Virus record (IMG/VR): IMGVR_UViG_2681813227_000023
Span: 1-22,725 of that record
Origin: a virus
Taxonomy: Duplodnaviria; Heunggongvirae; Uroviricota; Caudoviricetes
Length of the DNA stretch: 22,725 nucleotides
Reading direction: 5' to 3' (one strand)
The first letter of the stretch is position 1. Every line of letters starts with the position of its first letter. Below, piece by piece: positions 13,469 to 14,120 of the stretch. The position numbers and the translations under genes were made by a program. Under the pieces are notes generated by a model. The model searched no databases. It saw only the letters and a program-made list of their open reading frames with translations, and had not been told where the DNA came from.

Positions 13469-13840
13469 TTATTGCTCGCTTAACTTCTGCTTCAGCAAGT
13501 AACCTTCAAGCATCCAGATTTTGTTTACAGCATTCTGCCGGGCAATCTTCCGACCAATTTCCGCATCAAAGTTTTCCGGGCTTGCACAGGCGCTCTCTCC
13601 GGTGACGGTGAAGCCGTTGCGCAGCACCAGAACGCAGAACGTCAGCAGAGAAAGTGATTCGTGCGGCTGGTAGTTTACCTCTCCGCCAGTATGTTTCGCT
13701 TTTATGGCTACGCCAAAGACACCATCTTCTGCTGTGAAATATGCCTCCTGAGCAATAATGCTCTCGATATGGTCTGGCGTAACGCGCGGCGCGGCTAAAC
13801 CTTTAGCCTGAATTTCAGATTCAATGTCTTTGTCACTCAT
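13469..13840 (-). CDS. Conserved phage protein of unknown function (123 aa), possibly Gp49-like (N4 gp49 / Sf6 gp66 family)
   Basis: ATG 13840 with AAGGTGAG SD. Family assignment is from memory of similar prophage proteins and is not verified. Opposite orientation to the flanking packaging and structural genes. Confidence 0.5.
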   Translation of the reverse strand: MSDKDIESEIQAKGLAAPRVTPDHIESIIAQEAYFTAEDGVFGVAIKAKHTGGEVNYQPHESLSLLTFCVLVLRNGFTVTGESACASPENFDAEIGRKIARQNAVNKIWMLEGYLLKQKLSEQ

Positions 13841-13856
13841 AGTCTAATCTCACCTT

Positions 13857-13880
13857 AAAAAAATGCCCGGCGAACCGGGC
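13857..13880 (-). terminator. Terminator-like hairpin on the minus strand (GCCCGG-TTCG-CCGGGC plus T7), between the tRNA and the downstream minus-strand gene
   Basis: Read on the minus strand the stem-loop is followed by TTTTTTT, then directly by the SD and ATG of the 13469..13840 gene. Confidence 0.5.
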
Positions 13881-14043
13881 GAACTGGAAGCAATGAGTTA
13901 TGCCTTCCGTGGCTGTACTGGTTTACAGCATGAAGTCATCGCAATGGCGTCCTGCTGTAAAAAGGGCGGTGATAGTCCTTCAAGGGAAACCATCACCGCC
14001 AAGCCCCTGGAACTTCTGGCATCACGGTCCTTAGGCGTGATTC

Positions 14044-14120
14044 TGGCGTGGCATGCAGGATTCGAACCTGCGACCAACCGCTTAGAAGGCGGTTGCTCTG
14101 TCCAACTGAGCTAATGCCAC
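14044..14120 (-). tRNA. tRNA-Arg (anticodon UCU), 77 nt with encoded CCA
   Basis: Minus-strand fold: acceptor GTGGCAT/ATGCCAC, D-stem GCTC/GAGC, anticodon stem ACCGC/GCGGT with loop CTTCTAA (anticodon TCT), T-arm GCAGG-TTCGAAT-CCTGC, discriminator G, CCA. Sequence differs from what I recall of E. coli argU. Confidence 0.85.

Follow-up and report, generated by a model that had tools for sequence, protein, structure and literature searches.

An inverted cargo slot in the head-gene region of phiV10-like phages holds an Acb4-family gene behind a tRNA and a conserved leader RNA

In the 22,725-nucleotide stretch of tailed-phage DNA analyzed here (IMG/VR record IMGVR_UViG_2681813227_000023, positions 1 to 22,725; hereafter the window), the genes for the large terminase subunit (terL) and the portal protein are both read from the plus strand, yet the interval that separates them carries a protein gene and a tRNA gene on the minus strand, and a terminator-like hairpin lies directly against the ribosome-binding site of the protein gene. 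How is a gene in such a position transcribed, what does its product do, and did gene and tRNA arrive together as an acquired moron, as a first-pass annotation of the sequence had proposed? We find that the encoded protein is, by sequence and predicted structure, a member of the Acb4 family of cyclic-dinucleotide sponges, which counter the cyclic oligonucleotide-based antiphage signaling system (CBASS), and that its gene occupies a slot in which other small genes alternate among related phages. The explanation that we favor, and that we consider rather probable as a whole, is that positions 13429..14479 of the minus strand form a single accessory transcription unit amid the packaging and head genes of a Uetakevirus of the phiV10 type. 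This unit would comprise, in the direction of transcription, a promoter with an overlapping operator, a leader RNA of about 190 nt, the tRNA-Arg(UCU), two terminator-like hairpins (T1 and T2), a U-rich leader that bears a Shine-Dalgarno sequence, an exchangeable cargo gene, and a terminator active in both directions (T3); coordinates are collected in Table 1.

The source of the window is readily recognized: at 99.3% identity, positions 13300..14800 match Escherichia phage phiV10 (Uetakevirus) as well as O157 typing phages 9 and 10, and the phiV10 annotation gives the flanking genes as terminase large subunit and head-tail adaptor/portal. From the same phage come the recombination, repressor, replication, and regulator genes that fill the window's left half. 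Within the inverted interval, the minus-strand gene of 123 codons, the tRNA-Arg(UCU), and the hairpin abutting the gene's Shine-Dalgarno sequence are all real and lie where the first-pass annotation had placed them; its picture was incomplete in that T1, T3, and everything upstream of the tRNA had been overlooked.

The cargo of this window matches the Pfam family PF13876 (Phage_gp49_66, the family of N4 gp49 and Sf6 gene 66) over all 82 profile positions (1-82/82; 121.3 bits, with the cut-off at 27; E = 2.4e-35), and its sole match in a sequence search of the PDB is 9E4W, the Acb4 protein of Bacillus phage SPO1 (E = 0.007). An AlphaFold2 monomer model, built from an alignment of 71 relatives and with a predicted local distance difference test score (pLDDT) of 84.2, features the succession H-H-E-H-H-E-E-H of helices (H) and strands (E) and displays the Acb4 protomer architecture: three antiparallel strands, flanking N-terminal helices, and a long C-terminal helical extension. 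The best 13 Foldseek matches of this model in the PDB are all 9e4w chains, with template modeling scores of 0.60-0.68 and a probability of 1.00, the next match falling below 0.7. On these sequence and model comparisons the protein belongs to the family of Acb4 anti-CBASS sponges; earlier it had been labeled only a "conserved phage gene". SPO1 Acb4 and the window protein share a full PF13876 domain, a core of the order alpha-beta-beta-beta-alpha followed by a long C-terminal helix, and the stacking phenylalanine and adenine-pocket residues, whereas they differ in length (96 versus 123 residues), are only 22% identical, and are set apart by an extra N-terminal helix and an inserted loop at residues 50-60, both absent from SPO1 Acb4.

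Experimental work on the family provides the functional frame for this assignment. SPO1 Acb4 was described as a tetrameric sponge for 3'3'-cyclic GMP-AMP (3'3'-cGAMP) and related CBASS signals that rescues phage from CBASS (Chang et al., bioRxiv 10.1101/2024.12.30.630793), and the same study equated the Acb4 family with PF13876 (1,331 homologues), observed 3'3'-cGAMP binding by eight of eight purified homologues, obtained tetramers for eight of eight modeled homologues, likened the fold to that of double-stranded RNA-binding domains (dsRBD), and reported that homologues from Gram-negative hosts are altered in specificity and also bind 3'3'-c-di-AMP (3'3'-cAA). Table S3 of that study includes phiV10 Q287B5 together with epsilon15, Sf6, and N4 members. 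Q287B5 and the window protein differ by one residue; the Acb4 gene is an already catalogued family member, and the locus is a fresh case of known counter-defense gene replacement.

We further checked the pocket residues K36, F48, E49, V56, Y57, F62, N63, I66, T70, and K81 of SPO1 Acb4 in a HMMER alignment to 9e4w. The residues that provide base stacking and the adenine pocket (F48, F62, and I66) correspond to F77, F91, and I95 of the window protein, with F77 and F91 invariant among the 71 relatives, while C85 and D92 stand at conservative or backbone contacts and K81 of SPO1 fell outside the alignment. A relative at 72% identity (P0052) is fused to PF21825 (Sequestin, an anti-Thoeris sponge), an arrangement that agrees with the sponge-sponge fusions reported elsewhere (bioRxiv 10.1101/2025.07.12.664507). 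Lambdoid Shiga toxin (Stx) prophages, exemplified by the Stx2a-converting phage LC645442 and by E. coli chromosomes, have no more of the Acb4 gene in common with the window than its 3' 105 codons, at 93-96% identity, and this 3'-only sharing indicates, as read from the sequences, that Uetakeviruses and lambdoid phages have recombined within the gene.

To see what occupies the same place in other phages, we compared ten annotated relatives and then IMG/VR loci retrieved by the T2 sequence, which yielded 176 loci with T2, 155 of them also with the end of terL. Two blocks are conserved, one running from T1 through T2 and the U-run to the Shine-Dalgarno sequence and the other from a perfect 12-bp palindrome through T3 to terL, and the stretch between them is variable. 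The Acb4 family is the cargo in 71 of the 155 loci (46%), followed by a 140-aa family (phrog_4846; 32 loci), a membrane/coiled-coil family of 201-292 aa (18), and families of 115 aa (6), 143 aa (5), and 86 aa (3); a Tad2-like protein (PF11195, E = 1.9e-24) is found in four loci (3%), several cargos are singletons, and the slot is empty in 11. The gene is thus absent or replaced in some relatives, far from being universally conserved at this position. T2, the U-run, and the Shine-Dalgarno sequence are kept before Acb4, 140-aa, Tad2-like, and other cargos, and because the ATG of most cargos lies 6-17 nt past the U-run, most of them use the same ribosome-binding site; the TL-2011b and EC.W1-9 cargo types start 65-110 nt past T2 with Shine-Dalgarno sequences of their own. 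Even the "empty" site of phiv142-3 keeps an 8-codon open reading frame (ORF), MKYEFDGF*, which is similar to the C terminus of E15-type Acb4 proteins (..MKDEFDRF*) and in sequence resembles a deletion remnant.

Several of the alternative cargos fall outside the families that could be recognized. The 140-aa family is confined to Enterobacteriaceae, with 80 database relatives; Pfam and PDB sequence searches returned no match for it, and its AlphaFold2 model (pLDDT 78.7, predicted template modeling score 0.49) had no Foldseek match in the PDB below an E value of 2.9. Pfam and PDB searches were likewise without match for the 143-aa cargo, which bears CxxC motifs, the 115-aa cargo, a repeat protein, and the 86-aa and membrane/coiled-coil cargos. 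The cargo of SPN1S is a lipoprotein. Examples of the unknown families are found at L008:1670-2092 (HEMP4), L009 (PAS61), L161, L133, and L010. Since the promoter region, T2, U-run, Shine-Dalgarno sequence, and T3 are conserved in the Uetakeviruses of E. coli, Salmonella, Klebsiella, and Enterobacter, the inverted scaffold is, by this sequence comparison, a resident docking site rather than an insert.

The platform on which the cargos dock is built around T2, a GC-rich hairpin of conserved structure followed by a U-tract, as in intrinsic terminators. T2 folds at -12.7 kcal/mol (z = -3.0), and in the 176 related loci its two inner stem pairs, which were left unconstrained in the search pattern, are GG/CC in 124, AC/GT in 50, TC/GA in one, and GG/CT, with a G-U pair, in one; these compensatory changes argue that the hairpin itself is under selection. 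T1, which follows the tRNA, is the stronger of the two (-22.8 kcal/mol, z -5.6). RNAalifold run on the T1-T2 interval recovered T2 only, as indels broke the alignment. T3, at the far end, folds on both strands (-12.3 kcal/mol on the minus strand, -14.6 kcal/mol on the plus strand), and the phiV10 annotation lists it as the terminator of terL. The 12-bp palindrome GTGACATGTCAC marks the 3' boundary of the cargo in 118 of the 155 related loci; in TL-2011b one copy stands directly after T2, and a second exact copy is found in the window at 11188..11199, both window copies lying a short distance upstream of an intrinsic terminator.

Upstream of the hairpins, the tRNA is the only one that ARAGORN detects in the window (tRNA-Arg, tct), scores 73.3 bits against the Rfam tRNA model, and has the cloverleaf, the UCU anticodon, an encoded CCA end, and A20 and G73, identity elements for arginyl-tRNA synthetase. 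It is kept in relatives, yet it travels independently of the cargo: VB_ST_E15 and Kp4865-1 have the Acb4 gene and lack the tRNA, phiv142-3 has the tRNA and lacks the gene, of the loci with Acb4, 55 have the tRNA and 16 do not, and the tRNA is also seen with other cargos or with an empty slot. As all four combinations exist, gene and tRNA are not one acquired unit. In SPN1S, a tRNA segment of about 400 nt lies between direct repeats of TTCCCTTGATGCT, whereas E15 has a single repeat copy and no such segment. Service to the adjacent gene was rejected as a role for the tRNA, given that the Acb4 gene is without any AGA or AGG codon. Per 1000 codons, the window genes overall contain 5.1 AGA, the early genes 8.0 and the late genes 2.6; E. 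coli averages about 2. We also noted a boxA-like candidate, GUGCUCUCAGCG, just 5' of the tRNA.

These comparisons bear directly on the moron question. In favor of the earlier proposal, the unit is accessory and lies on the opposite strand, the gene is present variably at the same position, and a terminator, T3, follows it. The gene differs from morons in having no promoter of its own directly upstream and in a base composition that does not stand out (GC 0.495, the window as a whole 0.497), and for these two reasons it falls outside the strict definition; moreover, the scaffold is resident, and gene and tRNA are separable. The "acquired moron" reading therefore holds only in part.

Some 600 nt upstream of the cargo gene, ahead of the tRNA, we identified a candidate sigma-70 promoter. 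With a position weight matrix (PWM) whose frequencies follow published compilations, it has the top minus-strand score in 13841..14600 (12.05, above 95% of the best scores of shuffled sequences), and in 93 distinct relatives the TTGACA hexamer is invariant whereas the middle of the spacer is variable. A palindrome, TTACC-N5-GGTAA, lies across the -10 hexamer, and the window contains nine copies of it, of 15 nt each, against 0.34 expected, all in intergenic promoter regions: pairs lie downstream of the repressor gene (3847..4431), in the repressor/cro-like interval, before the 6898 operon, and before the small terminase gene (terS), and a single copy at 14443. Its half-sites are invariant and its center variable in relatives. 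We infer from this distribution that the palindrome serves a phage regulator as its operator, a CI-like repressor being the simplest candidate, and that the unit would be switched together with the early promoters; the palindrome family looks like one operator for every transcription unit, including the late terS unit.

Between the candidate promoter and the tRNA lies a structured, pseudoknotted leader RNA, which we could not place in any known family. In an alignment of 35 diverse copies, its four helices and the pseudoknot are paired in 92-100% of cells, compared with 8-65% in slid controls, and compensatory double changes occur in 13 of 29 pairs, with the pseudoknot CACC/GGUG becoming AACC/GGUU in three sequences. 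Rfam 15 returned no match for the RNA (14110..14380, E<=10), and a search of 13300..14900 at E<=1 gave the tRNA only; a literature search found nothing on it. The window has one copy by nhmmer (E = 6e-37) and no second one. The RNA is by no means confined to Uetakeviruses: a 1.39-kb query covering 13380..14768 matched 1332 of 5426 complete E. coli genomes, 223 of which hold at least 80% of it, and most of the partial matches appear to be the leader RNA, a stretch without annotation. A stretch of about 170-245 nt recurs in lambdoid phages (mEp460, mEp390, Stx2a and Stx2c phages, and an e14-like prophage), always 120-220 nt downstream of a CI/LexA-like repressor gene, on the same strand and ahead of the early-left genes, and it is found at the equivalent place in a Stenotrophomonas phage. 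In P1, P7, and D6 it lies between trnI and ban in the C1-controlled ban operon. A strong promoter-like site is present 36-146 nt upstream in every context examined, and T1- or T2-like terminators often follow downstream in unrelated phages too (T1-like in mEp460 and mEp390). Separately, GUCGUUAAAU followed by a short GGAGUGCGCUCC-like hairpin is a repeated motif flanking the leader RNA in several phages (14396..14405 and 14377..14388 on the minus strand here; also L188 and L189), and hairpins with GGAA(A)GA loops recur in lambdoid leaders, an arrangement that is by analogy loosely reminiscent of boxA/boxB nut sites.

Taken as one unit, these parts suggest the following model. Devoid of a promoter of its own, the cargo would depend on polymerase that starts at the upstream candidate promoter and passes T1 and T2, either by leaking through them or after the leader RNA has made it resistant to terminators. 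By homology to its characterized relatives, the Acb4-family protein should form a tetramer that sequesters 3'3'-cGAMP, and probably also 3'3'-c-di-AMP or cUA; with its CBASS signal sequestered, the host effector would never be activated and infection would proceed. The tRNA, in turn, would supply decoding of AGA, a codon rare in the host and enriched in the phage's early genes. Of the two routes through the terminators we propose that the leader RNA helps polymerase to read through T1 and T2, as antitermination would explain both the presence of two conserved terminators directly before a gene expected to be well expressed and the position of the RNA at the nutL/putL place in lambdoid phages. 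A bolder version, which we hold only tentatively and regard as rather doubtful, is that the leader RNA represents an undescribed, widespread class of cis-acting phage RNAs, working on RNA polymerase as processive antiterminators that resemble put in function yet are much larger and unrelated to it in sequence, that T1 and T2 form a lock opened only by transcripts from the unit's own promoter, and that the unknown cargos (140-aa, 143-aa, 86-aa, and other families) are new counter-defense proteins; such a class would range over accessory operons of Uetakeviruses, PL leaders in many lambdoid phages and prophages, and the P1/P7 ban operon.

A number of observations weigh against this model. The -10 hexamer TACCTT is weak, and our stricter built-in promoter scan, as opposed to the looser PWM scan, found no promoter in 13000..15000. 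That the unit is repressed in the lysogen and expressed early upon infection is a guess, which presupposes a palindrome-binding protein. T2 looks efficient and a sponge is expected to be needed in quantity, which makes for a poor fit with simple leak-through. The complete leader RNA is absent from 10 of 150 T2-bearing loci that still carry cargo, so that it cannot be strictly required, and in P1 no terminator lies between the leader RNA and ban. In the literature on phiV10, epsilon15, or ZX5 transcription we found no transcript data. Finally, the guanine-reading residues K36 and E49 and the phosphate contacts Y57 and T70 of SPO1 Acb4 are replaced by L65, T78, A86, and I99 in the window protein. 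With four contact residues different, the ligand specificity may differ from that of SPO1 Acb4, and as far as the aligned residues tell, the changes are compatible with the broader specificity reported for Gram-negative homologues.

The same four changes among ten ligand-contact residues, together with the extra N-terminal helix and the insertion at residues 50-60, could be read as signs that the Acb4 fold does a different job in this clade, recognizing for instance another nucleotide signal or RNA, and so could the dsRBD likeness and the altered specificity of 3'3'-cAA-binding homologues from Gram-negative hosts that Chang et al. report (bioRxiv 10.1101/2024.12.30.630793). We consider this unlikely in view of the 3'3'-cGAMP binding by all eight diverse homologues assayed, the retention of F77, F91, and I95, and the presence of another nucleotide sponge, Tad2, in the same slot. 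A second departure from the model concerns the source of the transcript. T2 resembles a strong intrinsic terminator and might simply end the tRNA transcript, in which case the gene would be a self-contained moron with a promoter hidden in the tRNA/terminator interval, as classic morons have their own promoter and terminator, or else the hairpin would be a processing site; the TL-2011b and EC.W1-9 cargos, with 65-110 nt between T2 and their start, could hold such a promoter. The first-pass annotation had held that the promoter must overlap the tRNA/terminator region unless the hairpin is a processing site. Such an overlap is not supported: the PWM scan of 13841..14120 found no sigma-70-like site above background (best score 4.3, far below it, against 12.05 upstream), the built-in scan found none either, and the U-run and the Shine-Dalgarno sequence leave no space for one between them. 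Furthermore, the interval is conserved whatever the cargo, and in PAS61 33 nt just upstream of T2 are deleted with the cargo retained. We regard this whole account, hidden promoter or processing site, as quite improbable.

The time at which the unit is expressed can likewise be seen differently. Opposed to the late genes and bracketed by terminators, it is laid out like prophage-expressed morons, and the SPN1S lipoprotein and the membrane/coiled-coil cargos resemble exclusion or conversion proteins, so that tRNA and protein might benefit the lysogen in a lysogenic-conversion module rather than serve early lytic infection. However, the palindrome over the candidate promoter also stands at the divergent repressor/cro-like promoters, which suggests joint shut-off, and a signal sponge would be of no evident benefit to a lysogen, whose own CBASS it would disarm; expression from the prophage is in our estimate also an unlikely account, on a par with a changed job for the protein. 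Far more finely balanced is the role of the leader RNA, for which we give even weight to functions other than antitermination, namely that of a small RNA or decoy acting in trans, of an element for processing or stability, or of an RNA that senses a ligand. It is unlike HK022 put in size, architecture, and sequence, its pseudoknot and long invariant single strands are typical of ligand- or protein-binding RNAs, and the ten cargo loci that lack it and the absence of a terminator between it and ban in P1 point the same way. On the other side, it is always promoter-proximal in early repressor-controlled operons and frequently has T1- or T2-like terminators beyond it, also in unrelated phages, and the tRNA that lies between the RNA and the terminators makes a classical riboswitch expression platform unlikely.

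The proposed accessory unit can be placed among known systems with which it shares part of its design. In counter-defense hot spots, where Tad1, Tad2, and other inhibitors interchange at one locus, and in morons of the HK97/HK022 type, alternative small accessory genes are found at one position, and the slot described here is similar in that it harbors Acb4 and Tad2, both of them validated sponge families, has terminators on either side, and would be transcribed independently of its neighbors. It differs in that the apparently promoterless cargo docks at a fixed platform of terminator, U-run, and Shine-Dalgarno sequence past a tRNA and a leader RNA, and in its precise exchange points, the start codon on one side and the 12-bp palindrome on the other. 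The leader RNA is comparable to HK022 put in being promoter-proximal in early repressor-controlled operons with terminators beyond it, and in lambdoid phages it occupies the exact putL/nutL place just downstream of the repressor gene, whereas put is about 70 nt long with two stem-loops and the leader RNA about 190 nt, with five or more helices and a pseudoknot; an nhmmer comparison of the leader RNA with the HK022 nun-cI-cro-cII region detected no similarity (best E 0.2 over 16 nt). Mixed tRNA-mRNA operons, such as thrU-tyrU-glyT-thrT-tufB of E. coli and ban with trnA, trnT, and trnI in P1, also combine tRNA and protein genes under one promoter, and the P1 ban operon is in addition repressor-controlled and contains the same leader RNA; in the window, by contrast, two terminator-like hairpins part the tRNA from the gene, and in the ban operon the order of RNA element and tRNA is reversed.

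Table 1. Features of the minus-strand unit, its flanking genes, and the operator-like palindromes (window coordinates)
Feature	Position	Strand	Remarks
terL	11903..13378	+	by phiV10 annotation
T3, bidirectional terminator	13429..13448	both	common to cargo gene (-) and terL (+)
Perfect 12-bp palindrome	13453..13464	both	GTGACATGTCAC; 3' boundary of cargo
Acb4-family (PF13876) gene	13469..13840	-	123 aa, ATG start; predicted cyclic-dinucleotide sponge
Shine-Dalgarno sequence	13849..13856	-	AAGGTGAG (RNA AAGGUGAG), then 8 nt, then ATG at 13840; read from sequence
T2 hairpin	13857..13880	-	GCCCGG-UUCG-CCGGGC (13880..13865), A, U7 (13863..13857); intrinsic-terminator shape abutting ribosome-binding site
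T1 hairpin	13955..14000	-	14-bp hairpin (14000..13965), then CUUUUUACAG; terminator-like, after tRNA
tRNA-Arg	14044..14120	-	anticodon UCU (reads AGA), CCA end encoded; ARAGORN, Rfam
Leader RNA	14173..14360	-	structured, about 190 nt, pseudoknotted; between candidate promoter and tRNA
Leader RNA helices P1 and P2	14360-14352/14348-14340; 14335-14329/14286-14277
Leader RNA helices P4 and P5	14241-14238/14230-14227; 14209-14205/14197-14193
Leader RNA pseudoknot	14235-14232/14218-14215
Leader RNA invariant single strand	14277-14266	-	GGAAUGUGCAAG
Palindrome TTACC-N5-GGTAA over -10 hexamer	14443..14457	both	putative operator
Candidate sigma-70 promoter	14451..14479	-	TTGACA (14479..14474), 17-nt spacer, TACCTT (14456..14451); putative function
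Portal gene	14769..16448	+	by phiV10 annotation
TTACC-N5-GGTAA copies	starts 3712, 3775, 4487, 4535, 6818, 6880, 11278, 11296, 14443

Some observations concern the surroundings of the unit. An AT-rich block at 14440..14547 (GC 0.29), between the minus-strand unit and the portal operon, is nearly invariant in the Uetakeviruses of E. coli, Salmonella, and Klebsiella and contains a direct repeat, AAATTATTACC, at 14453..14463 and 14515..14525; it is probably also a control region of the portal/head operon. Two plus-strand ORFs within the interval are probably not genes: that at 13863..14114 (phiV10p04, phrog_4647) is antisense to the tRNA and has its frame broken by a 2-nt indel between SPN1S and E15, and the 87-aa ORF at 14158..14421 overlaps the covarying leader RNA and has a sole PHROG match at E 0.0014. 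As for terS, the gene as annotated, with a TTG start at 11232 as in phiV10, would enclose a terminator-like hairpin and two of the operator palindromes (11232..11320), and an ATG near 11311, just past the hairpin and the palindromes, looks like the true start.

The function of the Acb4 family dates from 2024-25, and the protein gene alone adds little to it. The docking site, where Acb4 and Tad2 sponges alternate with unknown families, provides a short list of candidate counter-defense proteins, and the leader RNA emerges as a conserved, covarying, and uncatalogued element at the start of early operons in lambdoid phages, P1, and Uetakeviruses. Should read-through of terminators be under its control, it would amount to another RNA answer, the second and an independent one, to the problem solved by HK022 put and would explain how early-left genes are expressed in many lambdoid phages that lack N.

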